Below, piece after piece: positions 1 to 21,405 of a stretch of 24,000 nucleotides of DNA (positions are counted from its first letter, which is position 1; each line of letters begins with the position of its first letter). A program made the translations under genes and the position numbers. The stretch spans positions 98,457 to 122,456 of the forward strand of contig CAZSHO010000001.1 of NCBI GenBank assembly GCA_964607005.1, written 5' to 3'. The notes under the pieces were generated by a model. It did no database searches. It saw only the letters and a program-made list of their open reading frames with translations, and was not told where the DNA came from. Source of the stretch: an uncultured Rhodocyclaceae bacterium (GTDB lineage Bacteria; Pseudomonadota; Gammaproteobacteria; Burkholderiales; Rhodocyclaceae).

Positions 1-1
1 A

Positions 2-703
2 CAGGCGGCCCTCAATCAACCTGTCGGTGACTTCACGCTGCTCGATCGTCGTGAAAATCCGGTACGGCTGGCCGATTATCGCGGCAAGCCCCTGCTGGTG
101 AGCTTCATCTACACGGGCTGCTTCGAAGTCTGCCCGACCACCACACGCAACCTGCAGAAAGTCGTCACCGATACCGTTGCCGTCCTCGGCACCAACCGAT
201 TTAATGTGATCAGCATCGGCTTCAACCAGCCTTTCGATTCACCAGCAGCCATGAAGGCCTTTGCCAGCCAGAACGGCATCGTTTTCCCGAACTGGGAATT
301 TCTCAGCCCTGCACCCGCCATCGTCAACAAACTGACACAAAATTTCGGCTTCAGTTATGTGCAGAATCCCTCCGGCTTCGACCACATCGTGCAGGTCACG
401 CTGGTGGATGCACAAGGGAAAATCTATCGACAAATCTATGGCGAGAAGCTGACATCCGACCAGCTGGTCGAACCAATGAAGCAGCTGATTGCCGGCGCAC
501 CGGTCGCGCAGAGCGGGGCCGTTGCCGACCTGTTCGACCGGGTGCGCATCCTCTGCTCGCGATACGATCCGAAAACCGGGGAATATCGTGTCAGCTACGG
601 GCTGGTTTTCGAAATTCTCGGCTTTCTCACCTTTCTCGGCTACATCGGCTGGTTTCTCTGGCAGGAGCTGCGCCAGCGCAGGTTCACGAATCCCGGCAAG
701 TAG
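2..703 (+). CDS. SCO1/SenC-family copper chaperone / thioredoxin-fold protein (5' end cut by window edge)
   Basis: The frame stays open back to position 2 (QAALNQPVGDFTLLDRRENPVRLADYRGKPLLVSFIYTGCFEVCPTTT). It has the SCO-type CxxxC motif (CFEVCP) and a downstream His (GFDHIVQV). The GTG at 98 in the ORF track is internal. A C-terminal hydrophobic helix is present (VFEILGFLTFLGYIGWFLW). Confidence 0.8.
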   Translation, partial: QAALNQPVGDFTLLDRRENPVRLADYRGKPLLVSFIYTGCFEVCPTTTRNLQKVVTDTVAVLGTNRFNVISIGFNQPFDSPAAMKAFASQNGIVFPNWEFLSPAPAIVNKLTQNFGFSYVQNPSGFDHIVQVTLVDAQGKIYRQIYGEKLTSDQLVEPMKQLIAGAPVAQSGAVADLFDRVRILCSRYDPKTGEYRVSYGLVFEILGFLTFLGYIGWFLWQELRQRRFTNPGK

Positions 704-774
704 GCTGAAGCACGTCGCATCCTGCGGACAAGCTTTATAATCATTCACTGATATAAGCCTGCCGTTTAACCCCA

Positions 775-2352
775 ATGGTGCATCCGCAGCCACGTCACTC
801 CTGGCATCCTCTCGCCGTGATTCAGCGCCTGGAAAGCTTCCTGGACCGCTTCTTCGGTGCCCGGGGCAATCCGCTGCGGCATCTGGGAGCACTGGGTTTT
901 TATTTTCTCTGGATCGCGCTCGCCAGCGGCATTTATCTGTTCATCGTTCTGGATACGGGCATCGAGAAAATTCACGCCTCGATCGAGTACTACACGCATG
1001 AGCAATGGTGGCTGGGCGGCATCATCCGCAGCCTGCACCGCTACGCCGCCGACGGGCTCGTCCTGGTCATGATCCTGCATGTCCTGCGCGAGCTCGCTCA
1101 TGGCCGTTTTCGCGGTTTTCGCAGCTTTACCTGGCTCACCGGAGTTCCGGTTATCTGGCTGGTCTATGCCTCCGGAATTGGCGGTTACTGGCTGGTCTGG
1201 GATCAGCTCGGGCTGTTCTCCGCGCTCGCCAGTGCCGAATGGTTCGACTGGCTGCCGTTCCTGCATAATGTGACAACACGCAATTTTCTGCCGGGCGTGC
1301 TGAATGACCGGTTTTTCACCTTGCTGCTGTTTCTTCATATCGGCATCCCGCTGCTCTTGCTGCTCGCCTTGTGGGCACATATCCAGCGCATTGCCCGGGC
1401 CGACGTCTTTCCTTCGCGCAGTCTCGCCGGCGGCACGCTCGCCATGCTGCTGGTGCTCGCCCTGATCAAACCCACTGTCTCGCACGGCAAGGCGGAGCTG
1501 TCACAACTGCCCTCCGTGCTGCAGATCGACTGGTACTACCTGTTCATTCACCCGTTGATGTACCTGACCTCCCCGGCCTTCCTCTGGTTTCTGTCTGCCG
1601 TGCTCACGCTGCTCCTGCTCGCCCTGCCCTTGCTGTCACCAGGGCGTGCGCAGGCACCGGTGGCGATCGTCGATCCGGACTATTGCAATGGTTGCCGTCG
1701 CTGCTTCGACGACTGCCCTTACAGCGCCATCACCCTGCGGCCCCATCCGGATCGGCCGGGGCACGAACTGGCCGGTGTGGATGCCCATCTATGCGCTTCC
1801 TGCGGCATCTGTGCAGGTGCCTGTCCTTCGTCGACGCCTTTTCGCAGCACTGACGCACTCGTCACCGGTATCGACATGCCCTCGCAACCGATCGGCGCAC
1901 TGCGCGCCGAAATGGAACGCAAGCTTGCCGCGCTCGAGGGTCCGGTTAAAATCCTGGTGTTCGGTTGTGATTGCGCCGTTGCGACCGCGCCTCTCGAAGA
2001 CGCGCAAACCGCAGTGCTGAGCCTTTTGTGTGTTGGCCTTTTACCGCCAAGCTTCATCGAATACGCCCTGCGCAGCGGTGCCGGCGGCGTGCTGGTGACC
2101 GGTTGCCGGGAAGGCAGTTGTGCCTACCGGCTGGGCAACCGCTGGATGGAAGAGCGCCTGGACGGCCAGCGCGAACCGCACCTGCGCCGCACCACCCCTC
2201 TTGATCGCCTGCGTGTCGTTCTCGCCGATGCTCATGAAATGAGCCAGCTCAAGGCGCAGCTCGATAAATTCCGCGAAGATTTGAATGTTTTGGACAAGAA
2301 TGGACAACACCCCCACACCACGCCCCCCAAAAGGATGACTCGACATGGTTAG
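775..2352 (+). CDS. Fusion protein: diheme cytochrome b (bc1/b6 N-terminal type) + 2x[4Fe-4S] ferredoxin + MvhD/FlpD-like iron-sulfur domain
   Basis: The N-terminal membrane domain has two His pairs spaced 14 residues apart, as in cytochrome b helices B and D (RSLHRYAADGLVLVMILHVL; FLHIGIPLLLLLALWAHIQ). Two CxxCxxCxxxCP motifs follow (CNGCRRCFDDCP, CASCGICAGACP). The C-terminus carries an MvhD-like signature (ILVFGCDC...LLCVGLLPPSFIEYALRSGAGGVLVTGCREGSCAYRLGN). No obvious SD precedes the ATG at 775, so the start is uncertain. Confidence 0.8.
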   Translation: MVHPQPRHSWHPLAVIQRLESFLDRFFGARGNPLRHLGALGFYFLWIALASGIYLFIVLDTGIEKIHASIEYYTHEQWWLGGIIRSLHRYAADGLVLVMILHVLRELAHGRFRGFRSFTWLTGVPVIWLVYASGIGGYWLVWDQLGLFSALASAEWFDWLPFLHNVTTRNFLPGVLNDRFFTLLLFLHIGIPLLLLLALWAHIQRIARADVFPSRSLAGGTLAMLLVLALIKPTVSHGKAELSQLPSVLQIDWYYLFIHPLMYLTSPAFLWFLSAVLTLLLLALPLLSPGRAQAPVAIVDPDYCNGCRRCFDDCPYSAITLRPHPDRPGHELAGVDAHLCASCGICAGACPSSTPFRSTDALVTGIDMPSQPIGALRAEMERKLAALEGPVKILVFGCDCAVATAPLEDAQTAVLSLLCVGLLPPSFIEYALRSGAGGVLVTGCREGSCAYRLGNRWMEERLDGQREPHLRRTTPLDRLRVVLADAHEMSQLKAQLDKFREDLNVLDKNGQHPHTTPPKRMTRHG

Positions 2353-2863
2353 CAAATCTCCCGTCAATCCGGCCGTACTGATCGGCCAGGTGCTGTTTTA
2401 CGGCCTGTTTGCCGTCATCATCGGCTATTTTTCAACGTCTCCCACCTTCACGCACATCGATCCTGGCCTGTCGTTGATCAAGCTCTCCTTCAGTACCCAG
2501 GCCGAGCCGGTGGGCGAGTGCCGCAACCGGACACCGGAAGAGCTCGCCAAGCTCGCACCGAATATGCGCGCACCGCGTATCTGCCCGCGCGAGCGCTCGC
2601 CGATCAAGGTCAGCATCAGCCTGGACGGCCAGCCGCTGTTCGAAGGCAGTGCACCCCCGGCCGGGCTGTCGAAGGACGGCCCCTCGACGCTCTACGAACG
2701 CTTTGAAGTCTCCGCAGGCAAGCATACGCTCTCGGTCAAGATGAACGATAACGTCAATATTCCCGGCTTCAATCATGTGCGCGAAGAAACGGTTGACCTG
2801 AAACCAGCGCAGATCCTCGTCATCGATCTGCGCAAGGACCGTGGCGGCATCATCTTTGAATGA
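2345..2863 (+). CDS. Small membrane-anchored protein of unknown function (one N-terminal TM helix plus a soluble beta-rich domain)
   Basis: The ATG overlaps the upstream stop by 8 nt (ATGGTTAG). Third codon positions are GC-rich. The N-terminal helix is VLIGQVLFYGLFAVIIGYF. There are two Cys (GECRNR, RICPRE) but no CxxCH and no CuA-type ligand set. Confidence 0.6.
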   Translation: MVSKSPVNPAVLIGQVLFYGLFAVIIGYFSTSPTFTHIDPGLSLIKLSFSTQAEPVGECRNRTPEELAKLAPNMRAPRICPRERSPIKVSISLDGQPLFEGSAPPAGLSKDGPSTLYERFEVSAGKHTLSVKMNDNVNIPGFNHVREETVDLKPAQILVIDLRKDRGGIIFE

Positions 2864-4257
2864 AGGCAAGTCTTGAATGCGGGCCGGAGGCGGCAGGGAC
2901 GGCTTTCCTCCTGACACCTGCTGATGCACGGCTCACCGGCATCGCCCGCGGCTGGCTCTGGCTGGGCCTGCTCGCCCTGATCGGTTCGGGGCTGCTATCG
3001 ATCATCCTTGTCCTCTCGCGCGCGCCACAATTTCAAAAACTCCTGCCGGCCGGAGACTTCTTTCGCACGGCCCTCGTGGTGCACGTTGATCTCTCCGTTC
3101 TCGTCTGGTTCATCTCGCTGGGCGGCATCCTGTGGACGCTGTCGGGCACGGTGCGCGCACTCTGGCTCAATCGCGCGGCCCTGCTCATCGCCGGACTGGG
3201 CACCCTGCTGATAACCCTCTCGCCATTCATCGGCCACGGCACGCCGATCATGGCCAATTACATTCCGGTACTCGACAATCCCGCCTTCCTCTGGGGATTG
3301 GTGATTTTCGGCTCAGGGGCGGTCGTGCTGGTACTGCGCAGCCTGATCGCCATGCCCGGCTGCTCCATGCCCCGAAGCGGCGAGGAAGCCCTGCAGGCCG
3401 GGCTCTCGCTCGGTCTGCTGCCCGCCGTCATCGCCATCATGGCCTTTGTCTGGTCTTGGCTGACGCAACCGGCCGGTCTGGGTGACAAAGCCTTTTACGA
3501 AATCCTTTTCTGGGGCGGCGGCCACGCACTGCAATTCATCTGGACGCTGTTCATGCTGGTCGCCTGGCTATGGCTGGCAAGTGCCTGTGGCGCACGCGTG
3601 CCGATGAGTCCGCGCATTGCTCTGCTCTGCTTTTTCCTGGCGGTGATCGGTGCGCTGGCAATCCCGGTTGCCTATCTCCTCTGGCCTGCCCATGCCGTCG
3701 AACACCGCAACCTGCTCACCTTTGCCATGGGGCTGGGCGGCGGGCTGCCGATCCTGCCCGTGGCGCTGGCCGTGCTGCTGGCCGTGCCTCCCGCACGTTC
3801 CATCGACGATGATGCGCGTCCCCTGCGTGCTGCCCTGTATGCCTCACTCGCCCTGTTCTGTTTCGGCGGTCTCATCGCGTTCACCATTTCGGGCAGCAAC
3901 GTCAAGATTCCTGCCCACTATCACGGCTGCATCGTCGGTGTCACCCTGGCGCTGATGGGGCTGGTGTATCACCTGCTGCCACACCTCGGTTATGCCCGGC
4001 CGGCACGCAAGGCCGCCACCTTTTCTTCGTATTGCTATGCCGCGGGACAGGCCCTGCACATCGGCGGCCTGATGTGGTCGGGCGGTTACGGCGTGCAGCG
4101 CAAGGTGGCCGGTGCTGAACAGGCCCTGAGGAGCACCAGCGAAATCGTCGCCATGGGCATCATGGGCATGGGCGGGCTCGTCGCCATCATCGGCGGACTG
4201 GTATTCGTCGTGGTTGTCCTGCTCGCCATGCGAAACAGACGGAGGAATGTCCCGTGA
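2860..4257 (+). CDS. Divergent heme-copper oxidase / NO-reductase superfamily subunit I-like protein (12 predicted TM)
   Basis: It shares an ATGA overlap with the upstream gene. There are twelve hydrophobic segments. His residues sit at HCO ligand-equivalent positions: H75 (VVHVDLSVLVWF, helix II), H222 (LFWGGGHALQF, compare aa3 WFFGHPEVY, helix VI), H278/H282 (WPAHAVEH, helix VII region) and H353/H355 (PAHYHGCIV, compare AHFHYV, helix X). The spacing H75-H222-H278-H353 (147/56/75) resembles cbb3 CcoN. Confidence 0.7.
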   Translation: MKASLECGPEAAGTAFLLTPADARLTGIARGWLWLGLLALIGSGLLSIILVLSRAPQFQKLLPAGDFFRTALVVHVDLSVLVWFISLGGILWTLSGTVRALWLNRAALLIAGLGTLLITLSPFIGHGTPIMANYIPVLDNPAFLWGLVIFGSGAVVLVLRSLIAMPGCSMPRSGEEALQAGLSLGLLPAVIAIMAFVWSWLTQPAGLGDKAFYEILFWGGGHALQFIWTLFMLVAWLWLASACGARVPMSPRIALLCFFLAVIGALAIPVAYLLWPAHAVEHRNLLTFAMGLGGGLPILPVALAVLLAVPPARSIDDDARPLRAALYASLALFCFGGLIAFTISGSNVKIPAHYHGCIVGVTLALMGLVYHLLPHLGYARPARKAATFSSYCYAAGQALHIGGLMWSGGYGVQRKVAGAEQALRSTSEIVAMGIMGMGGLVAIIGGLVFVVVVLLAMRNRRRNVP

Positions 4258-4442
4258 ACGATCCGCAAGGCCTTGCCGAAACCGTACGACGCGCCTGTAT
4301 CGAGGTAGCGCTGGAAGCCTACGAAGATGCCCAGGTGCGCGGCCTGTGCCACGAAGGCGCATGGGAAGTGGCCATCGGCGCCCTGCGCTCCCTCGACCTC
4401 AAAGCCCTCCTCGCCGCAGCCGGGAAAGAACAACCCGATTAA
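4254..4442 (+). CDS. Small 62-aa conserved-looking hypothetical protein, translationally coupled to the HCO-like gene
   Basis: Its GTG start overlaps the upstream TGA (GTGA). Third codon positions are GC-rich, like the neighbouring genes. It contains a Cys/His pair (RACIE...GLCHEGAW). No family was recognised. Confidence 0.5.
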   Translation: MNDPQGLAETVRRACIEVALEAYEDAQVRGLCHEGAWEVAIGALRSLDLKALLAAAGKEQPD

Positions 4443-5590
4443 TCGGCACAGCCCTGCCGTCCGCTCAGTGCCGTCAGCGCCCACAGCACCTGTACGAAAA
4501 ACACCGCCAGCCCGGCGAATGCCAGCCAGAAACCGGCAGTCCAGCCGAATGCCACCAGCCCGCCTCCGAGGAGAAAAGTCAGTCCTCGCAAGACGGCGTG
4601 ACGTCCCAGCCGCAGGCGTACCCCACGATGCCAATCGCCCTGCATGCCGGGCCGCAGCCAGACCGGCAACAACTGGCTGGCCGCACCGGTGACCAGCGGT
4701 AGCAAAAACATCAGCAGAAACCCGGGAATCGCCTCGCGTGCAGGCAACACGCCTGCCGCATGCAGCACGCCGAGGAGAAGCAGCAATCCCCATCCGCTCA
4801 AGGCAAGAGCAAGCAGCGGTGCGGCACCATGCCGGCAGAGCACTTGCATGCGAAGCGAGCGCAGCCAGCCACGCCCGAGCAAAAAAAACGGCACGAGCAA
4901 AAGCAACGCACCTGCATACGCCAGAGGCGGCCACCAAGCGGCACCCGCAGCCACCAGCAGTGCACCGGCAAGGCTGGGCATACGCATGCGCCGCAGCCAG
5001 TGCGCGGCCTGTGGATCAGGCTTCGCGGCCGCCGTCGGCAGCAGCACGGCAAGCGTGCCCAGGGCGGCGAGTCCGACAAACCCGAGCGTGTTCAGATGCA
5101 GATGGAACAGCCGCAAGGCTGTGCGTTGTTGCGGCCAGAGCGGCAGGATCAGCGCCGCCAACAAGGCCAGGACGAGACACAGCACGGCGGCCAGATACCA
5201 GTACAGACCGGGGTGTGGCGCCCCCAGGGTGGCGCGAGCTCGCCGCACGATCCACGCCGCCATGATCAGGGCGGCGACGAGCACCAGCGTGGCAGCGGCA
5301 TGGACAAGCGGGTTGAAAAATACCGGATGGTGAAAGGCAGCCACCACCAGCACGCCGGCGGCCAGCGGCAGCCACGGCAGATAGCACAGTGGCGTGGCCG
5401 GTGCCGCACTGCGCGTGAGCACCGGCACGAAATACAATATGGCGGCAAAGATCAGCGGCAGAACACCAATGGCAAAAGCCACGTGCGCGGCCAGCGCCGG
5501 GCTGGTGTACCCGGTGACGAAAAGGCCCAGCGCCACGGCAAACGCTGCACCGGCGACGGCCACCAGAAACGGCAGGATGCTGCCTCGCAC
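4439..5590 (-). CDS. Polytopic integral membrane protein (about 10-12 TM), possibly a distant NnrS-like protein
   Basis: 383 aa, very hydrophobic, with a GTG start. The motif HLHLNTLGFVGLAALGTLAVLLPT resembles the NnrS HAHEMLFGF..GF..T..P core but is not canonical. It lies directly downstream of a DUF2249 gene, a common NnrS neighbour. Confidence 0.45.
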   Translation of the reverse strand: MRGSILPFLVAVAGAAFAVALGLFVTGYTSPALAAHVAFAIGVLPLIFAAILYFVPVLTRSAAPATPLCYLPWLPLAAGVLVVAAFHHPVFFNPLVHAAATLVLVAALIMAAWIVRRARATLGAPHPGLYWYLAAVLCLVLALLAALILPLWPQQRTALRLFHLHLNTLGFVGLAALGTLAVLLPTAAAKPDPQAAHWLRRMRMPSLAGALLVAAGAAWWPPLAYAGALLLLVPFFLLGRGWLRSLRMQVLCRHGAAPLLALALSGWGLLLLLGVLHAAGVLPAREAIPGFLLMFLLPLVTGAASQLLPVWLRPGMQGDWHRGVRLRLGRHAVLRGLTFLLGGGLVAFGWTAGFWLAFAGLAVFFVQVLWALTALSGRQGCAD

Positions 5591-5616
5591 GCGGCCCGGG
5601 CTTGAAGAGGGAACGA

Positions 5617-5877
5617 TTATTTCTTCTTGGCGAAATCGATGACGACCTCGCCCGGCACCCGCTGCACGTAGCTGATCTCGATCTTGTCACCGAAGCGCGA
5701 CATCAGTTGTTCGAGCAGGGGCAACGGATCGTGATCGTTGCAAAAGCGCATCGTCTCGCCGGGGAACAGGGCTTCGAAAGCTCCGAAGATCGCCGCATGG
5801 CGAAAGCGCTTGGCAATGCCACGCGCATCGAAGGGATAGAGCTTGTCATCCTGCAGGTGCAGATGGGGATCGGCCAT
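5617..5877 (-). CDS. DUF2249-domain protein
   Basis: 86 aa with the DUF2249-like pattern FDARGIAKRFRHAAIFGAFEALFPGETMRFCNDHDPLPLLEQL. A strong SD (AAGGAG) precedes the ATG, and an FNR/DNR box lies upstream. Confidence 0.75.
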   Translation of the reverse strand: MADPHLHLQDDKLYPFDARGIAKRFRHAAIFGAFEALFPGETMRFCNDHDPLPLLEQLMSRFGDKIEISYVQRVPGEVVIDFAKKK

Positions 5878-5942
5878 GTTTTTCTCCTTGGGCTGTTTTC
5901 AGTGCGAAAATGGAATTGTCCGTGCCACATCCCATGACGGCC

Positions 5943-5956
5943 TTGATGCAAATCAT
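5943..5956. promoter_or_regulatory. FNR/DNR/NnrR-type binding box TTGATgcaaATCAT in a divergent promoter region
   Basis: It matches the TTGAT-N4-ATCAA consensus at 9 of 10 positions. The centre is about 72 nt from the DUF2249 ATG and about 94 nt from the 6044 ATG. -10-like hexamers lie about 22 nt away on both sides (TATGTT toward the plus gene, GACAAT toward the minus gene). Confidence 0.6.
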
Positions 5957-6043
5957 GGAAGCCGGATCATTAAGGTCTTATGTTTCCTCATAAATTAAAA
6001 GGTTATCCTTCCCGACAGATACTCCCCGACCTGGCAGACCTCC

Positions 6044-7972
6044 ATGCTCAAGCTGACCCACAAAACCCTGCAATGGTTTTTCATGCGTGTCGAAGGCCTT
6101 TTCAACCTGGCTTTTGGCGAAAAACTCAATCCGCTCTATCACCTGGGCACCATCACCTTCTGGCAGTTCTGGCTGGTCGCCGTGAGCGGCCTGTACCTCT
6201 TCGTCTTCACCGACACCGGCGTCAAGGATGCCTACCTGTCTGTCGAACGCATCACCCATGTCCAGTGGTGGGCCGGCGGCATCCTGCGCAGCATCCACCG
6301 CTACGCCTCGGACGGCATGATCCTCACCATGTTGCTGCACATGGTGCGCCATTTCGCCTTTGACCGCTATCGCGGTTTTCGCTGGTTCTCCTGGATGACC
6401 GGTGTCGTGCTGATCTGGCTGGTGTACATCTCGGGCATCAATGGCTTCATGCTGGTGTGGGACCGTCTTGCGCAATTCGTGACCGTCACCACCGCCGAAA
6501 TGTTCGACTGGTTTCCGATGTTTCATGGCGTGGTCATCCGCAACTTCATTTTCGAGGGTGCGGTCAATGACCGTCTGTTCACCCTGTTCGCCTTCATTCA
6601 TCTGGGCGCGCCCCTGCTGGTGCTGATGGTGATGTGGATCCACGTCCAGCGCGTGCCGCGCGCCAACATCAATCCGCCACGGACGATCGCCCTCTGGGTG
6701 ACGCTCACCTTCGTCGTGCTCTCCCTCGTCAAGCCGGTCGTCAGCCAGGGGCCGGCCAACCTCTCGGTCGAAGTGGGCAAGCTCGATTTCGACTGGTTCC
6801 TGCTGCCGGTCTTTGCCCTCGTCTATGAATGGCCGATGAAATACATCTGGGGGCTGCTCTTCGGTCTCACCGGTCTGCTGTATCTGTTTCCCTGGCTGCC
6901 GCCCAAACGGCGTGGCGCAGCCAAGGCCGAACTGGACATCAGCGTGCATCCGGACAACAAAACGGTGCAGGCGCACTTTGGCGAAACCATCCTCGATGCC
7001 GGCCTGCGCAACGACATCAATCTGCCCTACGAATGCCGCAATGGCGGCTGCGGCCTGTGCAAGTGCTCGGTACTGCAAGGCGAGGTCGATGCCGGTCTCT
7101 ACCAGCCGGAAGCACTCAGCGAAGCCGAGCGGGCGATGGGCAAGGTGCTGATGTGCTGCGCCACACCGCTCACCGACATCGAAATCGAATACGAACCGCA
7201 GTTCGCCCTGGTGCGAGCCCCCATCAAGGAATACGCCGGCACCGTCGACAAGATGGAAAAACTCACCCATGACGTCATGGGAGTGACGATCCGGCTGCCG
7301 CAAGGCGAGCGCATCGCCTTCAGCGCCGGTCAGTACATCAACATCATCCTCGAGGATGGTGCGCGGCGTGCCTTCTCGTTTGCCAGCGCACCGCACAACG
7401 CCGAACACATCGAGCTGCAGATCCGCCTCGTGCCGGGCGGACGCTTCACGACACAGGTCTTCGAGACGATGAAGGTGGGTGATCCGGTCCGCTTCGAAGG
7501 CCCGCTCGGCGACTTTGTCCTGCGCGAATCGAGCCGGCCGATCATCTTCGTCGCCGGCGCCACCGGCTTCGCACCGGTGAAGAGCATGGTCGAGGATGCC
7601 TTCCACCGCGGGCTGAAACGGCCGATCCGTCTCTACTGGGGCATCCGCCATCCGCAGGACCTCTACATGGCCGACCTGCCGGAAAAATGGCAGCAGGAAC
7701 ACGGCACTTTCAAGTTCATCCCGGTCGTCTCGGAACCTGCGGACGGGGATGGCTGGAACGGGCGCACCGGCCTCGTGCATGAGGCCATCCTGCAGGATTT
7801 CCCCAGTCTGGCCGGCAATGAAATCTACGCCTGCGGCTCGGTGCGCATGGTTGAGGCAATCTTTCCCCAACTGAAGAACCATGGGGCGGAAGAAGGCATG
7901 TGCTTCTCGGACGCTTTCACCCTCTCGGCACGCTCCATGGCGCTGCAGGTACCGGAGGACCCGGCGGGCTGA
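6044..7972 (+). CDS. Fusion protein: diheme cytochrome b + plant-type [2Fe-2S] ferredoxin + FNR-family FAD/NAD(P)H oxidoreductase
   Basis: The N-terminal domain is paralogous to 775-1500, with the same two His pairs 14 residues apart (RSIHRYASDGMILTMLLHMV; FIHLGAPLLVLMVMWIHVQ). It has the C-x4-C-x2-C...C motif (YECRNGGCGLCKC...VLMCCATP). FNR-family motifs are present: RAFSFAS, GPLGDF, FVAGATGFAPVKSM and YACGS. Confidence 0.85.
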   Translation: MLKLTHKTLQWFFMRVEGLFNLAFGEKLNPLYHLGTITFWQFWLVAVSGLYLFVFTDTGVKDAYLSVERITHVQWWAGGILRSIHRYASDGMILTMLLHMVRHFAFDRYRGFRWFSWMTGVVLIWLVYISGINGFMLVWDRLAQFVTVTTAEMFDWFPMFHGVVIRNFIFEGAVNDRLFTLFAFIHLGAPLLVLMVMWIHVQRVPRANINPPRTIALWVTLTFVVLSLVKPVVSQGPANLSVEVGKLDFDWFLLPVFALVYEWPMKYIWGLLFGLTGLLYLFPWLPPKRRGAAKAELDISVHPDNKTVQAHFGETILDAGLRNDINLPYECRNGGCGLCKCSVLQGEVDAGLYQPEALSEAERAMGKVLMCCATPLTDIEIEYEPQFALVRAPIKEYAGTVDKMEKLTHDVMGVTIRLPQGERIAFSAGQYINIILEDGARRAFSFASAPHNAEHIELQIRLVPGGRFTTQVFETMKVGDPVRFEGPLGDFVLRESSRPIIFVAGATGFAPVKSMVEDAFHRGLKRPIRLYWGIRHPQDLYMADLPEKWQQEHGTFKFIPVVSEPADGDGWNGRTGLVHEAILQDFPSLAGNEIYACGSVRMVEAIFPQLKNHGAEEGMCFSDAFTLSARSMALQVPEDPAG

Positions 7973-8041: not shown

Positions 8042-9289
8042 TCAGTCCGGCAGCGCGATCCTGCCGTCCTTGCTGAGGAGATAATCCCTGAAGACGTGTT
8101 CGGCACTGAGCAGCTGATAGCTGCCATCGGCCAGTTTGTGCGAGGTGTCCTTCAGGCGATACGTGGTTGCACCGCAAGTCCAGCAGTCAAAGTTGCGCAT
8201 GTGGGTGCACAGGCAGGTTTTGTCCTTGACGCTGATCGTCTTGGCGCCAGGGTTTTTTGCCAGCTCCCGATAATAGGCGTCGATATAGTCGCAATGCCCC
8301 TTGGCATCGAGCAGATAGCCATAGGCCTCACAATTGGGCCGGATGCCGGCGCCGATCGCCGGGCTGCTCTTCAGCATGCGCATCGGATATCCGGTCGGCG
8401 AAATGCCGTTGACCTCGATGTCCTCTTCGTTTGCCTTGAAGTATTCCTGCTTGACATCGTCCGGCAGACCGCATTCGTGCGTCACGGTGAAGCGCGTGGC
8501 CACCTGGATGGCCGCGGCACCGGCTTCGAGATACTCGACGGCGTCGCTGCCAGTGAAGATACCCCCGGCCGGAATCACCGGAATGTCGAGTTTTTCCTCG
8601 CGCAGCCACTGCATGATTTCGGCAACGATGGCGCGCAGATCGTATTTCATCCAGTCGTCGAGACCGAAACCGAGGTGCCCTCCGGCCAGCGGTCCTTCCA
8701 CCACGACATAATCGGGCAAGCGACCGGTGCGTGCACTTTTCTTGATGAAGATTTTCAGCGCGCGCAAGGATGAGACGATGATGCCCAGTTTCACATCCGC
8801 AAAGCGCGGGTGCTCTTCGATCAGATCGAAGGTTCCCATGTGCAGGCCGGCCGCCAGTGTGATGCCGTCGATGCCGGCATCCATGGCGGAAGTCAGACGG
8901 ATGCGCAGCGTCTCCTTGGGCGCATTCATCGTCAGCTTTTCCATGCAGTTGATGAAGATCAGCCCGTCGCCGCGCTTGGCATCCATGGTGCGCCCGACAT
9001 GCAGGCGCGTCGCCTCGGCGACGTCGCTCAGATCGAACTGGACTTCGGACTTGTCCGGGTTGGCGACATTGTATTTGTAGCGCTTTTGCTTGGCACTGAC
9101 GAATTTGGTGTCGTAGCGGCGATCGGTCACCGTGCGGGTCATCGCATCCGAGATATGGCCGATGCCGCCCAGGCGGGCCGCCACCAGGGCCAGATCGGTC
9201 GCCGAGATGTCCACGCCCATGCCGCCAATCATGATCGGCACCAGTTCGCGCCCGCTCAGACGCAGACGAAAATCATCCACACTTTTCAT
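8042..9289 (-). CDS. Nitronate monooxygenase (2-nitropropane dioxygenase, NPD)-family FMN oxidoreductase with a Cys-rich C-terminal extension
   Basis: It has the N-terminal IMIGGMGVDIS...LGGIGHIS motif, plus VVVEGPLAGGHLGF and IPVIPAGGIFTGSD, which are typical of the NMO/FabK-like TIM-barrel family. The C-terminal roughly 90 aa carry 7 Cys. Confidence 0.7.
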   Translation of the reverse strand: MKSVDDFRLRLSGRELVPIMIGGMGVDISATDLALVAARLGGIGHISDAMTRTVTDRRYDTKFVSAKQKRYKYNVANPDKSEVQFDLSDVAEATRLHVGRTMDAKRGDGLIFINCMEKLTMNAPKETLRIRLTSAMDAGIDGITLAAGLHMGTFDLIEEHPRFADVKLGIIVSSLRALKIFIKKSARTGRLPDYVVVEGPLAGGHLGFGLDDWMKYDLRAIVAEIMQWLREEKLDIPVIPAGGIFTGSDAVEYLEAGAAAIQVATRFTVTHECGLPDDVKQEYFKANEEDIEVNGISPTGYPMRMLKSSPAIGAGIRPNCEAYGYLLDAKGHCDYIDAYYRELAKNPGAKTISVKDKTCLCTHMRNFDCWTCGATTYRLKDTSHKLADGSYQLLSAEHVFRDYLLSKDGRIALPD

Positions 9290-17471: not shown

Positions 17472-19329
<1,858 letters not shown>

Positions 19330-19370: not shown

Positions 19371-21194
19371 TCAGTGTTCTTCGGCACTCACGGACAGGCC
19401 GGGGGAAGCCTTCCCTGCTTCGTGGCCGCTCTTGATGCGTTGCTCGCGCCGCTTGCGCCGTTCGATCAGCGGCGGACACGTCTTGTCGTCGTAATAGATG
19501 ACCTGACAGTCCAGACAATAGTGGCATTCGTTGGCATTGATCTCTCCGGTCGGGCGGATCGCCCGCACCGGGCACTGGCTGGCACAGACCTGACAGGGCT
19601 TGCCGCATTCCTTGCGCCGGCGCAGCCACCATTCGAACAACCGGAAGCGGCCCGGAATGGCCAGAGCCGCCCCGAGCGGACAAAGGTACTTGCAATAGAA
19701 TTTGCGATTGACCGCCGCCAGACCAATGAGGATCAGCGCGTACAGGATGTAGTGCCAGTCACGCTGGAAGCGCATGGCGATCACGGTCTTGAACGGCTCC
19801 ACCTCGGCGAACCAGGCAGCCTGGGCAATCGACTGCAGCGAGACACCGAAGAGCAGGATGAGGATGATGTACTTGAGCGCAACGAGCCGCTCATGCACGG
19901 CATTGCTGAATTCGAACTGCGGCAGATTCAATTTGCGCGAAGCGACAAGGATCAGTTCCTGCAAGGCGCCAAACGGGCAGAGCCAGCCGCAATACACCCC
20001 ACGCCCCCAGAGCAGGAGCGTCATCGCCACGAATCCCCAGAGGATGAAGAGCATCGGATCAATGAGGAAATGCTCCCAGCGGAAGCCGCCCATCACCGAG
20101 TTGGTGAAGGTCAGCACATTGATCACCGACAGCTGGGCGAGGCCATACCAGCCGAGGAAGAAAAGTGAATAAACATGAAAACCATAGCGTACCCGCTTGA
20201 GTAATTTCGGGCGCCTGGCCAGCCAGTCCTGGAAGATCAGAATGATGAACAGCGTCGCCAGGCCCAGCACCAGCACGGTGATCTCGAAGACGCGGTTACG
20301 CCAGATGCCGATCCACATCGGCTCGTCCTCTTGCAGCGCCGTCACAACTGACGATGGCCATGAAGTCTGGGCAGGGCCGCCTACCGACTCGGCCCGCGCT
20401 GGTACGGCGGAGGTCCTGCCGGACATCGGTTGTTCCAACGATTTTTCCGGCGACTTTGATGAGGCTTCCGGTCCCGATACCGCCTGCGCCGGACGCTGGC
20501 GTGCCGGAGCCGGCTTGGCTTGCGGGCGCTTTACCGGCTCTTCGACCGACGGCAGCGGCCCGGTCACCTGTTGCGACCCCGCCGGCCCGGGCAGGAGCAC
20601 CGGTTCACTGGTTGAAGCGGGTCCGGCTTTCGCTTCCGGGGCGACTTCCTGCGCCACCGCAGAGGGAACGGGAGGAACAATCCCGCGTGCAGTCGCTACC
20701 GCCCGGGCCGAGCGCATCACGGTGGAATTGATGACCATCACCGTGATGGTGGCGCCGGAAATGCCATCGACGGCAATATGCCCGGAGCGGGGCGCACCAA
20801 TGATCACCTTGTCGAAGGCATTCTTGCCCTGATACTGCGCGGCATAGCGTGCCAGGCGTTCATGGGTGATGCCGACCGCCAGAATCGGCTCATCGTGATT
20901 GACAATCGTGAGCCCCGCGATACGCCCGCTCAGATCCAGCCCGACCAGCACATTGATCGGCTTGCCGGAATACGCCGGGATGCGCAGCACATCGTCGCTC
21001 AGGAACACATAGCCGATCGTTTTGCCATCCTGGAAAACGGCGGCCGAGGGAGGAGACCCCTCGAAGTCCCCATATCTTTCGGCCTGCGGGAAAATCGAGT
21101 GCAGCTGAGGATAGGTCGTGGACAATTCGGCCGCCTGCGCCCATCCGCCCAGGCAAATGGCCAGCAGTCCGAAGAGGAATCGTCTGATGATCAA
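19371..21194 (-). CDS. nirI: NosR/NirI-family membrane-bound FMN-binding iron-sulfur regulator/electron donor
   Basis: It has a periplasmic FMN_bind-like motif (VDGISGATITVMV), TM helices with CPFGALQE and CKYLCPLGA motifs, and a C-terminal ferredoxin-like region (CGKPCQVCASQCP, CHYCLDCQ). The ORF-track start (21350) overlaps the tRNA. I propose the TTG at 21194, which gives the signal peptide MIIRRFLFGLLAICLGGWAQA. The start is uncertain. Confidence 0.75.
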   Translation of the reverse strand: MIIRRFLFGLLAICLGGWAQAAELSTTYPQLHSIFPQAERYGDFEGSPPSAAVFQDGKTIGYVFLSDDVLRIPAYSGKPINVLVGLDLSGRIAGLTIVNHDEPILAVGITHERLARYAAQYQGKNAFDKVIIGAPRSGHIAVDGISGATITVMVINSTVMRSARAVATARGIVPPVPSAVAQEVAPEAKAGPASTSEPVLLPGPAGSQQVTGPLPSVEEPVKRPQAKPAPARQRPAQAVSGPEASSKSPEKSLEQPMSGRTSAVPARAESVGGPAQTSWPSSVVTALQEDEPMWIGIWRNRVFEITVLVLGLATLFIILIFQDWLARRPKLLKRVRYGFHVYSLFFLGWYGLAQLSVINVLTFTNSVMGGFRWEHFLIDPMLFILWGFVAMTLLLWGRGVYCGWLCPFGALQELILVASRKLNLPQFEFSNAVHERLVALKYIILILLFGVSLQSIAQAAWFAEVEPFKTVIAMRFQRDWHYILYALILIGLAAVNRKFYCKYLCPLGAALAIPGRFRLFEWWLRRRKECGKPCQVCASQCPVRAIRPTGEINANECHYCLDCQVIYYDDKTCPPLIERRKRREQRIKSGHEAGKASPGLSVSAEEH

Positions 21195-21318
21195 GAGACA
21201 AGCCTCATGCCGGATGACCGTCCATGGGGCCGGAAAACCTTTCGAGAATCCGCGCCGATCGCATCTGAAGAGAAGAGAGTCTGTCGTATGTCTTGCAGGA
21301 CTGCCTGCGCTGCATTCA

Positions 21319-21405
21319 TGGTGCCGGGAGGGGGACTCGAACCCCCACACTGTCGCCAGCGGCGGATTTTGAGTCCGCTGCGTCTACCAATTCCGCCATC
21401 CCGGC
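21319..21405 (-). tRNA. tRNA-Leu (anticodon CAA), 87 nt with long variable arm and encoded CCA
   Basis: The minus-strand sequence is GCCGGGATGGCGGAATTGGTAGACGCAGCGGACTCAAAATCCGCCGCTGGCGACAGTGTGGGGGTTCGAGTCCCCCTCCCGGCACCA. The acceptor stem GCCGGGA/TCCCGGC, the anticodon stem GCGGA/TCCGC with loop CTCAAAA, and the T-arm GGGGG-TTCGAGT-CCCCC all pair. Confidence 0.95.

Follow-up and report, generated by a model that had tools for sequence, protein, structure and literature searches.

Here we report that the left end of a 24,000-nt stretch of DNA from an uncultured Rhodocyclaceae bacterium (contig CAZSHO010000001.1; the whole stretch is the window, and coordinates refer to it unless a relative is named) is the accessory, downstream half of a gene cluster for a clade-e haem-copper nitric oxide (NO) reductase (eNOR). 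The region encodes a copper chaperone (SCO), two cytochrome b fusion proteins, a small membrane-anchored protein of 172 amino acids (aa; p172) and a 465-aa COX1-like protein, which profile comparison firmly identifies as a predicted paralogue of eNOR subunit I without a CuB site. We propose, at a probability of roughly 45%, that these proteins constitute an eNOR-accessory module in which electrons would pass from cytoplasmic NAD(P)H across the membrane to the CuB-less haem protein, in the service of eNOR. Relatives used for comparison are labelled L001, L090 etc. (loci) and P0121 etc. (representative proteins).

The eNOR genes themselves lie just outside the window, whose edge cuts the SCO gene. 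The original prediction, made from the letters of the window, had noted that no protein of positions 1-7972 contains a CxxCH or CuA motif, which we confirm; its conclusion that no subunit II was encoded is a window-edge effect, because eNOR subunit I is present on contig L090 and a CuA-bearing subunit II in the relatives. Contig L090 is 100% identical to window positions 1-4102 and reaches 1764 nt further upstream. Its complete SCO gene (L090 1586-2467; 293 aa) starts 179 nt before window position 1, and a COX1 gene ends 111 nt upstream of SCO, i.e. 291 nt upstream of window position 1. The product of this COX1 gene contains the motifs GHSSQQ, AHH and GHFH, matches Pfam COX1 with 173 bits, is 74% identical to a 563-aa protein of the relatives and has, within GHSSQQ, the Gln at the position of the cross-link Tyr that is diagnostic of eNOR (PMC8756737). 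Upstream of SCO the relatives carry a small open reading frame (ORF), a 179-aa COX2-like gene, the 563-aa COX1 gene and often a gene of the UbiA family (haem O synthase), with ctaA nearby. Among 171 loci surveyed, an eNOR subunit I gene precedes the module in 76 of the 79 with over 4.5 kb of sequence before the first module gene, and the CuA motif C-x-E-x-C-x3-H-x2-M is intact in every subunit II sequence recovered there (83/83).

Two features of this upstream region were observed in passing. In the spacer between eNOR subunit I and SCO (L090 1475-1585; 291 to 180 nt upstream of window position 1), a hairpin with a stem of 7 G-C pairs (GGGCCGC-GCAA-GCGGCCC) precedes T-rich TTTCTCCTT; a terminator scan made no call on this hairpin, which is visible by eye in L090, and because of it and the T-rich tract the module may be a separate or attenuated transcription unit. 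The window's clade (e.g. L001 208-2255, minus strand) also has two different CtaA/Cox15 paralogues next to each other, in divergent orientation to the eNOR genes: a full-length one (373 bits) and a shorter, divergent one (117 bits).

The linkage of the module genes exceeds chance by far. A scan of one genome per species yielded 362 genomes with a relative of the 465-aa protein, and 80 loci were fetched for tblastn with the window proteins. Matches were obtained for the cytochrome b-FeS-MvhD gene in 79/80 loci, for p172 in 76/80, for SCO in 68/80 and for the cytochrome b-Fdx-FNR gene in 77/80, some of the last being cross-hits that cover the cytochrome b domain only. The 383-aa protein m383 was matched in 27/80 loci, solely in those with the Rhodocyclales-type order, a DUF2249 protein in 26/80, and the 62-aa ORF in 14/80, all close Rhodocyclales relatives. 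A further 80 metagenome loci showed the same gene orders, so that the recurrence of the gene order envisaged in the original prediction holds for about 160 loci. The metagenome scan, made with an alignment query, gave only close relatives (at least 51% identity), so more distant contexts rest on seven single look-ups. Hosts among the genomes scanned are mostly heterotrophic or facultative denitrifiers (Rhodocyclales, Burkholderiales, Rhodanobacteraceae), and a NirS with >50% identity lies inside 10 of the 77 long loci as well as in the window. Clustered at 50% identity, the COX1-like family amounts to 1412 clusters if matches with E up to 1e-3 are admitted and to 572 if the limit is set at 1e-30.

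The commonest order, found in 20 loci of the window's clade, runs ctaA and ctaA (both on the opposite strand), eNOR subunit II, eNOR subunit I, SCO, cytochrome b-FeS-MvhD, p172, COX1-like, m383 and DUF2249 (both on the opposite strand) and cytochrome b-Fdx-FNR; with the small ORF before the CuA-bearing subunit II and p62 after the COX1-like gene, this is the full cluster in the window's lineage. A second common order is eNOR II, eNOR I, CtaB, SCO, cytochrome b-FeS-MvhD, p172, COX1-like, cytochrome b-Fdx-FNR and, in some cases, CtaA; a third exchanges the two fusions and runs eNOR II, eNOR I, CtaB, SCO, cytochrome b-Fdx-FNR, p172, cytochrome b-FeS-MvhD, COX1-like and again, in some cases, CtaA. 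The usual position of the module is between ctaB/sco and ctaA. Relatives at 55-62% identity have the cytochrome b-Fdx-FNR gene directly after the COX1-like gene or between SCO and p172; in most lineages it adjoins the COX1-like gene. The m383/DUF2249 pair therefore counts as an insertion confined to the window's Rhodocyclales clade. One of the two cytochrome b fusions is missing in about 6 of the 77 long loci, and both are missing in a single locus, the orphan L083, where the COX1-like gene stands alone. The cytochrome b-Fdx-FNR protein thus belongs to the core of the module, to which it contributes NAD(P)H binding. The earlier statement that cytochrome b-FeS-MvhD is the only redox partner holds within positions 2-4442; beyond them, the gene at 6044-7972 belongs to the module as well.

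The membership of the 465-aa protein in the haem-copper oxidoreductase (HCO) superfamily, postulated in the original prediction, was upheld. Its Pfam COX1 match spans profile positions 2-426 of 436, and the AlphaFold2 (AF2) model (pLDDT 89.7, pTM 0.91) has the 12 long helices of the subunit I fold, with ba3 oxidase (1ehk_A) as the best Foldseek match (TM-score 0.76, 20% identity). The sequence diverges strongly, and single-sequence searches found no PDB match (phmmer) and no NCBIfam family; a 35-sequence family profile matched B-family ba3 oxidases alone in the PDB (2.7e-16). Alignment with the 85 eNOR subunit I sequences from the same loci (hhalign) gave a probability of 99.9, an E-value of 4e-34 and 23% identity over 440 columns. 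Metal ligands were assigned from two independent profile alignments, one to Thermus ba3 and one to these 85 sequences. In both, H75, H355 and H353 match the haem ligands (low-spin, helices II and X; high-spin, helix X) and H222 corresponds to the CuB/FeB ligand of helix VI. Opposite the two adjacent histidines of helix VII stand A271/Y272, in a register fixed by a (K/V)PMSxR motif that both sides have 20 residues upstream, with no gap in between; the site of the cross-link Tyr, or of the eNOR Gln (His+4), aligns to F226. Four of the six canonical ligands are kept and two of the three CuB/FeB histidines are lost.

Column counts over 204 family sequences agree with this assignment. H75, H222, H353, Q225 and Y354 are each invariant (204/204), H355 occurs in 203/204, E214 in 199/204 and Y272 in 194/204; F226 occupies the cross-link site in 195/204 and Tyr in 8/204. 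No conserved His pair was found across the family. The claim of His at all six ligand positions was therefore wrong: the two CuB/FeB histidines align to A271/Y272, and H278 is present in 38/204 sequences (19%). A displaced CuB site formed by H278 and H282 is likewise unsupported, given this frequency of H278 and the location of H282 (177/204), which falls where helix VIII begins, ~10 residues beyond the canonical site; a metal site peculiar to the clade and involving E281/H282 may exist. No K-channel residues were recognisable in the eNOR subunit I profile alignment. Of the Gln residues of eNOR the protein shares the preceding one (Q225), with Phe at the diagnostic position, and it has no adjacent CuA subunit II of its own, since the preceding gene encodes the non-cupredoxin sandwich p172 and the CuA subunit of the cluster precedes the true eNOR subunit I. 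Membership in the published sNOR, gNOR, nNOR and N2O-red families was rejected because all of these keep at least two of the three His and because PDB matches are to the B family only; gNOR is the only family reported to replace even one active-site His (PMC11214002). By its sequence the COX1-like family sits outside the HCO families described there. The polar residues around the high-spin haem site, E214, Q225, Y272, Y354 and K415, are invariant or nearly so.

The two cytochrome b fusions share a four-helix diheme bundle of the bc1/b6f type. Both cytochrome b domains match cytochrome b6/cytochrome b structures in the PDB over helices A-D (cytochrome b6, 2e-15), and the haem-ligand histidines, H88, H102, H188 and H202 in cytochrome b-FeS-MvhD and H85, H99, H186 and H200 in cytochrome b-Fdx-FNR, are kept in at least 95% of orthologues. 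Since two more helices follow the helix D region, the FeS/MvhD and Fdx/FNR domains should be cytoplasmic. A D-W-[YF] motif is conserved in the loop after helix E of both paralogues; detectable cytochrome b homology ends at helix D. The cytochrome b-FeS-MvhD translation has two CxxCxxCxxxCP motifs whose Cys are conserved among orthologues, an FlpD domain well above threshold (Pfam 49 bits vs a cut-off of 22; C398, C419, C444 and C449 conserved) and an NCBIfam match to the C-terminal part of HdrA2 (3e-25). MvhD domains are characteristic of the bifurcating Hdr/Mvh systems; the loci contain neither a hydrogenase nor an Hdr partner, and no Rieske gene was found in any of them. The cytochrome b-Fdx-FNR protein has the Fer2, FAD_binding_6 and NAD_binding_1 architecture of BenC/Fre-type reductases (NCBIfam BenC-like 1e-64, Fre-like 4.5e-55); the BenC-like score is below the equivalog cut-off, so the assignment is at superfamily level only.

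The SCO protein, assigned to the thioredoxin-fold SCO1/SenC family by a Pfam match above the cut-off, keeps CxxxC (C40, C44) and the distal Cu-binding His (H128) in at least 95% of 63 orthologues. Besides the usual N-terminal anchor it carries a C-terminal hydrophobic helix, unusual for Sco, which is preceded by conserved C185, Y188, D189, G193, Y195 and R196. The AF2 model of p172 (pLDDT 86) consists of a transmembrane helix (residues 9-30) and eight strands, and Foldseek returned generic sandwich folds only (best E 5e-3). A degenerate cupredoxin subunit II was considered for p172 and rejected on the Foldseek result and an hhalign probability of 0.1 against 83 eNOR subunit II sequences. Homology was found to the C-terminal extension of the 692- and 706-aa cytochrome b-FeS-FlpD proteins of the Nitrospirota locus L175 (BLASTP 1e-20; hhalign probability 98.6), both of which end in a transmembrane helix and a p172-like domain. 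These fusions firmly identify p172, at the level of sequence, as a predicted detached C-terminal domain of the cytochrome b-FeS-MvhD protein, which the 8-nt gene overlap also fits; its sandwich must be periplasmic.

Coordinates of the features are collected in Table 1. The five co-directional ORFs are separated by a 71-nt gap and then by overlaps of ATGGTTAG (8 nt), ATGA and GTGA, exactly as originally described, and the Pfam families anticipated for them (SCO1-SenC, a cytochrome b family, here Cytochrome_B, Fer4, FlpD and COX1) were all found, the 172-aa and 62-aa proteins being without a match.

Table 1. Features of the eNOR-accessory region in the 24,000-nt window.
Feature	Position	Strand	Evidence and remarks
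SCO/SenC copper chaperone	2..703	+	3' 702 nt only, cut by the window edge; Pfam SCO1-SenC 1e-15
Cytochrome b-2x[4Fe-4S]-MvhD/FlpD fusion (cytochrome b-FeS-MvhD), 525 aa	775..2352	+	Pfam Cytochrome_B 4e-14, several Fer4, FlpD 5.7e-13
p172, 172 aa, N-terminal membrane helix and periplasmic beta-sandwich	2345..2863	+	AF2 model; no Pfam/NCBIfam match
COX1-like putative paralogue of eNOR subunit I, 465 aa	2860..4257	+	Pfam COX1 6.9e-12, 45 bits
p62, 62-aa soluble ORF, lineage-specific, outside the conserved core	4254..4442	+	no Pfam family match
m383, His-rich 383-aa membrane protein, ~11 transmembrane helices	4439..5590	-	no Pfam match
DUF2249 protein	5617..5877	-	Pfam DUF2249 3.5e-26
FNR/DNR/NnrR-type box TTGATGCAAATCAT	5943..5956	.	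~90 nt upstream of the cytochrome b-Fdx-FNR gene
Cytochrome b-[2Fe-2S] ferredoxin-FAD/NAD(P)H reductase (cytochrome b-Fdx-FNR)	6044..7972	+	Pfam Cytochrome_B, Fer2, FAD_binding_6, NAD_binding_1

Gene fusions and distant members of the COX1-like family add to this picture. The COX1-like protein is fused at its C-terminus to a UbiA-family prenyltransferase in one case (P0222, L082 2629-4875) and to TPR domains in three (P0137, P0193 and P0208), one of which matches the CcmH/CycH TPR family; in P0121 it is fused to a cytochrome b, the only such case, and nirS follows. In the Nitrospirota locus L175 the order is COX2, an eNOR-type COX1 (GHSSQQ, EHH, GHFH), UbiA, SCO, cytochrome b-Fer4-FlpD (706 aa), NuoF-like, cytochrome b-Fer4-FlpD (692 aa) and COX1-like. 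The NuoF-like NADH flavoprotein (L175 5989-7290; Complex1_51K and NADH_4Fe-4S) stands between both cytochrome b fusions in place of the proteobacterial Fdx-FNR, so the cytoplasmic NAD(H)-type module is of the FNR type in Proteobacteria and of the NuoF type in Nitrospirota. In metagenome-assembled genomes of Deltaproteobacteria type (L086/L082), distant members are preceded by eNOR II, eNOR I and a 42-aa ORF and followed by UbiA and SCO. On the 11-kb contig L085, a member lies directly after a CuA subunit II and before ctaA, with no other subunit I on the contig. In L172 (7610-10332), P0163 (37% identity) starts at the pntB stop codon, downstream of pntAA-pntAB, with no eNOR within 9 kb; this is a second, unexplained tie of the CuB-less family to NAD(P)(H) metabolism.

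The box at 5943-5956 corresponds to TTGAT-N4-ATCAA with one mismatch. Boxes with at most one mismatch at 20-250 nt upstream of a gene (expected in ~2%) precede the cytochrome b-Fdx-FNR gene in 39/100 loci, the first eNOR gene in 24/77 and the cytochrome b-FeS-FlpD gene in 13/117; the numbers are 1/109 for SCO, 1/135 for p172, 1/155 for the COX1-like gene and 0/70 for UbiA. Together with the nirS neighbourhood, these FNR/DNR-type boxes substantiate the suggested link to denitrification. In the proteome of Fe(II)-oxidising, denitrifying Ferrigenium straubiae, a May 2026 preprint lists values of 31.6 for eNOR, 28.0 for the 'eNOR scaffold protein', 26.2 for the first and 23.9 for the second cytochrome b protein and 24.7 for Sco1; transcripts are several-fold higher under denitrifying than under microoxic conditions, if we read the columns of its supplementary table correctly (bioRxiv 10.64898/2026.01.22.701106).

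We infer the direction of electron flow, the existence of a physical complex and the end use from these data. In the proposed module, two diheme cytochromes b, possibly as a heterodimer, would carry electrons from cytoplasmic cofactors across the membrane along two routes, one from NAD(P)H via FAD to a [2Fe-2S] cluster and the other from the [2Fe-2S] cluster of MvhD to the two [4Fe-4S] clusters. Their destination would be the periplasmic side, where the haems of the CuB-less paralogue would accept them, in a manner that may be likened to NOX/FRE-type export. The module would be expressed together with eNOR at low O2 or when NO is present, and would serve eNOR rather than act as an independent canonical NO reductase (NOR). 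BenC/Fre-type reductases oxidise NAD(P)H, and the outward direction is favoured because of this reductase type and the heterotrophic hosts. As to end use, we lean towards maturation of the haem-As/Cu enzyme, where the module might provide reductant for haem A synthase and/or handle haem on the 'scaffold', because the module sits between ctaB/sco and ctaA, fusions to UbiA and TPR occur and ligands have been lost; alternatively, it might carry out an auxiliary, NAD(P)H-driven, haem-only reaction with NO or O2. Several points weigh against our proposal. Four redox subunits with six haems are heavy equipment for an assembly factor, and E214, Q225, Y272, Y354 and K415 would suit an active site better than a passive scaffold. 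Some family members are encoded apart from eNOR (L083, L172, L085), and the cytochrome b::COX1-like fusion P0121 sits at a contig end. The eNOR of Rhodothermus marinus is obtained in active form as a two-subunit enzyme (PMC11214002), which places the module outside the catalytic core. Together with the invariance of the pocket residues and the extent of the redox machinery, the members found apart from eNOR speak for a catalytic role.

The same evidence bears on a stand-alone enzyme, which would be the original prediction in amended form: the COX1-like protein, p172 and both cytochrome b fusions as a membrane reductase of NO or O2, fed by cytoplasmic NAD(P)H/FeS via transmembrane diheme b and working with haem only or with a His/Glu/Tyr-metal site. 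It would merely share an operon and the genes for haem As and Cu biogenesis with eNOR, as a membrane counterpart of flavohaemoglobin or NorVW. Of the architecture first proposed, HCO homology and cytochrome b linkage stood, whereas the binuclear site is incomplete and the unit lies directly downstream of a complete eNOR; a transmembrane cytochrome b wired to the HCO-like protein is hinted at by P0121, yet it would not be the sole input, the NAD(P)H partner at 6044-7972 having been taken for a neighbour. The strict conservation of Q225, Y354, E214 and Y272, the dedicated electron-input proteins, the orphan members, the CuA subunit II of L085, the FNR/DNR boxes with the nirS neighbourhood and a reductase domain from the superfamily of the flavohaemoglobin reductase would all suit such an enzyme. 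We nevertheless regard it as unlikely, given that all characterised HCO-type NORs use a binuclear site of which two of three CuB/FeB ligands are gone here, that K-channel residues are not recognisable in the eNOR subunit I alignment, that co-localisation with eNOR between ctaB/sco and ctaA is near-obligate and that the UbiA and TPR fusions suggest biogenesis. A more far-reaching and rather improbable possibility is that the four proteins form a six-haem FeS/flavin membrane complex tying the cytoplasmic NAD(P)(H)/ferredoxin pool to periplasmic NO chemistry, either as a haem-only, NAD(P)H-driven NO consumer on a CuB-less HCO scaffold or as a Q-cycle-like device without a Rieske protein, in which NO reduction by eNOR would supply the energy for reducing NAD(P)+ or ferredoxin. 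If true, either form would be a new mode of bioenergetic coupling in denitrification, kept from Proteobacteria to Nitrospirota.

Electrons might also run the other way. In the Ferrigenium preprint, the cytochrome b fusions are seen as quinol:NAD+ (or ferredoxin) oxidoreductases within an eNOR supercomplex, where one electron of quinol would be driven uphill via haems b and FeS/FAD to NAD(P)+ by the large free energy that NO reduction yields, in a Q-cycle-like bifurcation without Rieske protein. The cytochrome b type, the reversible NuoF-like module of the Nitrospirota version and the bifurcating associations of MvhD would fit, as would the D-W-[YF] motif if it is equivalent to the PEWY motif of the quinol-oxidation site, which is solely our suggestion; the system is also found in chemolithoautotrophs that need reverse flow (bioRxiv 10.64898/2026.01.22.701106). 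Against this, the hosts we found are mostly heterotrophic or facultative denitrifiers, and BenC/Fre-type FNR modules normally run from NAD(P)H to an acceptor. The reverse path would run against the membrane potential and require haem b to reduce low-potential FeS clusters, no Rieske or equivalent high-potential acceptor was identified in the loci, and the end of cytochrome b homology at helix D leaves the Qo site unproven. Reverse flow to NAD+ is thus a minor possibility that applies mainly to autotrophs. It is scarcely credible that these genes have nothing to do with each other, or that the COX1-like gene is a copy of eNOR subunit I decaying into a pseudogene: the lost catalytic ligands and low Pfam score would agree with decay, but about 160 loci have intact ORFs with 55-83% identity and invariant haem ligands, the family fills 1412 clusters, the 12-helix model is confident, gene order is kept across phyla, and the protein was detected in the F. 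straubiae proteome.

The remainder of the window contains an NMO-like gene, creD, a nirN-J-H-G-DL-F-S cluster with a NosR/NirI-like gene, queA and tgt. The nitronate-monooxygenase-like (NMO/FMN) gene (8042-9289, minus strand; 415 aa) sits between the module and the nir cluster and adjoins cytochrome b-Fdx-FNR in 16 of the 18 loci that have it (80-84% identity). Two further FNR/DNR-type boxes, TTGATATAAGTCAA at 19285-19298 and TTGATAATTATCAT at 19316-19329, are found in the interval that separates nirS from the NosR/NirI-like gene (19371-21350, minus strand), at the listed nirS start (19298) or a short distance upstream of it. The protein m383 has no Pfam match and shows no similarity to NnrS by BLAST or Pfam, and its identification as NnrS was rejected; a true NnrS stands beside DUF2249 in the corresponding neighbourhood of L089, so m383 may be a positional analogue of NnrS. 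Long antisense ORFs are frequent throughout the window (e.g. 239-892, 766-1485 and 5978-7882, all minus strand, the last a 634-aa ORF opposite cytochrome b-Fdx-FNR); they had no family match where tested and are the usual consequence of a G+C content of ~61%.

This study shows that eNOR clusters carry a conserved set of four redox proteins, which may bear on the microbial production of the greenhouse gas N2O, since eNOR reportedly ranks with the most common NO reductases in nature, which makes it a source of N2O (PMC11214002). It raises the questions of how a haem-A-dependent NOR is matured when O2 is scarce and whether the NAD(P)H pool can be coupled to NO reduction. The routine annotations of these genes as 'cbb3-type cytochrome c oxidase subunit I' and 'hydrogenase iron-sulfur subunit' mislead metabolic reconstructions. 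Our literature searches returned nothing relevant on the combination of MvhD, cytochrome b and HCO, and no experimental characterisation of the module. New here are the predicted CuB-less paralogy to eNOR subunit I, p172 as a detached domain, the cytochrome b fusions as a core across orders and phyla, and the NAD(H)-type cytoplasmic end.

Known systems resemble the module in part. The COX1-like protein has in common with eNOR of R. marinus (Murali et al. 2024; PMC11214002) the 12-helix fold, both haem ligand sets, the Arg/Lys pair for the propionates, the Gln at His+3 and a cluster with ctaA, ctaB and sco; it differs in A271/Y272 in place of the helix-VII His-His, Phe for Gln at His+4, the lack of its own CuA partner and the tie to cytochrome b fusions. 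Its closest solved structure, by profile as well as by fold, is the ba3 oxidase of Thermus thermophilus (1EHK), of whose H282/H283, cross-linked Y237, CuA subunit II and K-channel analogue it retains none. Mitochondrial haem A synthase Cox15 needs ferredoxin and ferredoxin reductase (Yah1/Arh1), and a ferredoxin with an NAD(P)H reductase is likewise tied to haem A synthase here, where cytochrome b-Fdx-FNR is often the gene before ctaA; the differences are the fused membrane cytochrome b and a link that consists of gene neighbourhood only. The NOX/FRE ferric-reductase exporters, and MsrQ with Fre, offer an analogy for electron transfer from NAD(P)H via flavin and two stacked b haems across the membrane to an outer-side acceptor; they are not homologous, the module having a bc1/b6f-type diheme scaffold and an interposed [2Fe-2S] ferredoxin domain.

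The nearest counterpart is the operon of F. straubiae, and the architecture had thus been described before, contrary to the original prediction. According to the preprint, it comprises eNOR II, eNOR I, haem o synthase, sco1, 'Cytbc1CCC-like protein 1' (cytochrome b, FeS, FAD and NADH domains), a hypothetical protein, the 'eNOR scaffold protein' (KEGG COX1), PerM and 'Cytbc1CCC-like protein 2'; for the scaffold gene the authors speak of 'a very common observation', the cytochrome b genes are considered 'rather unusual' Ferrigenium markers, and a quinol:NAD+ oxidoreductase coupled to NO reduction is proposed (bioRxiv 10.64898/2026.01.22.701106). The gene set downstream of eNOR II, eNOR I, haem o synthase and sco1 and the domain descriptions agree with ours, including a second cytochrome b with FeS annotated as 'F420-reducing hydrogenase delta subunit', orthology to the window genes being based on synteny and annotation. 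On the same basis the 465-aa gene belongs to the 'eNOR scaffold protein' class, as a COX1-annotated gene inside an eNOR operon after haem o synthase and sco1. The passages of the preprint available to us mention neither the loss of CuB ligands nor the p172 fusion. In our survey, by contrast, the cytochrome b fusions are near-universal in proteobacterial eNOR clusters and occur in Nitrospirota as well.

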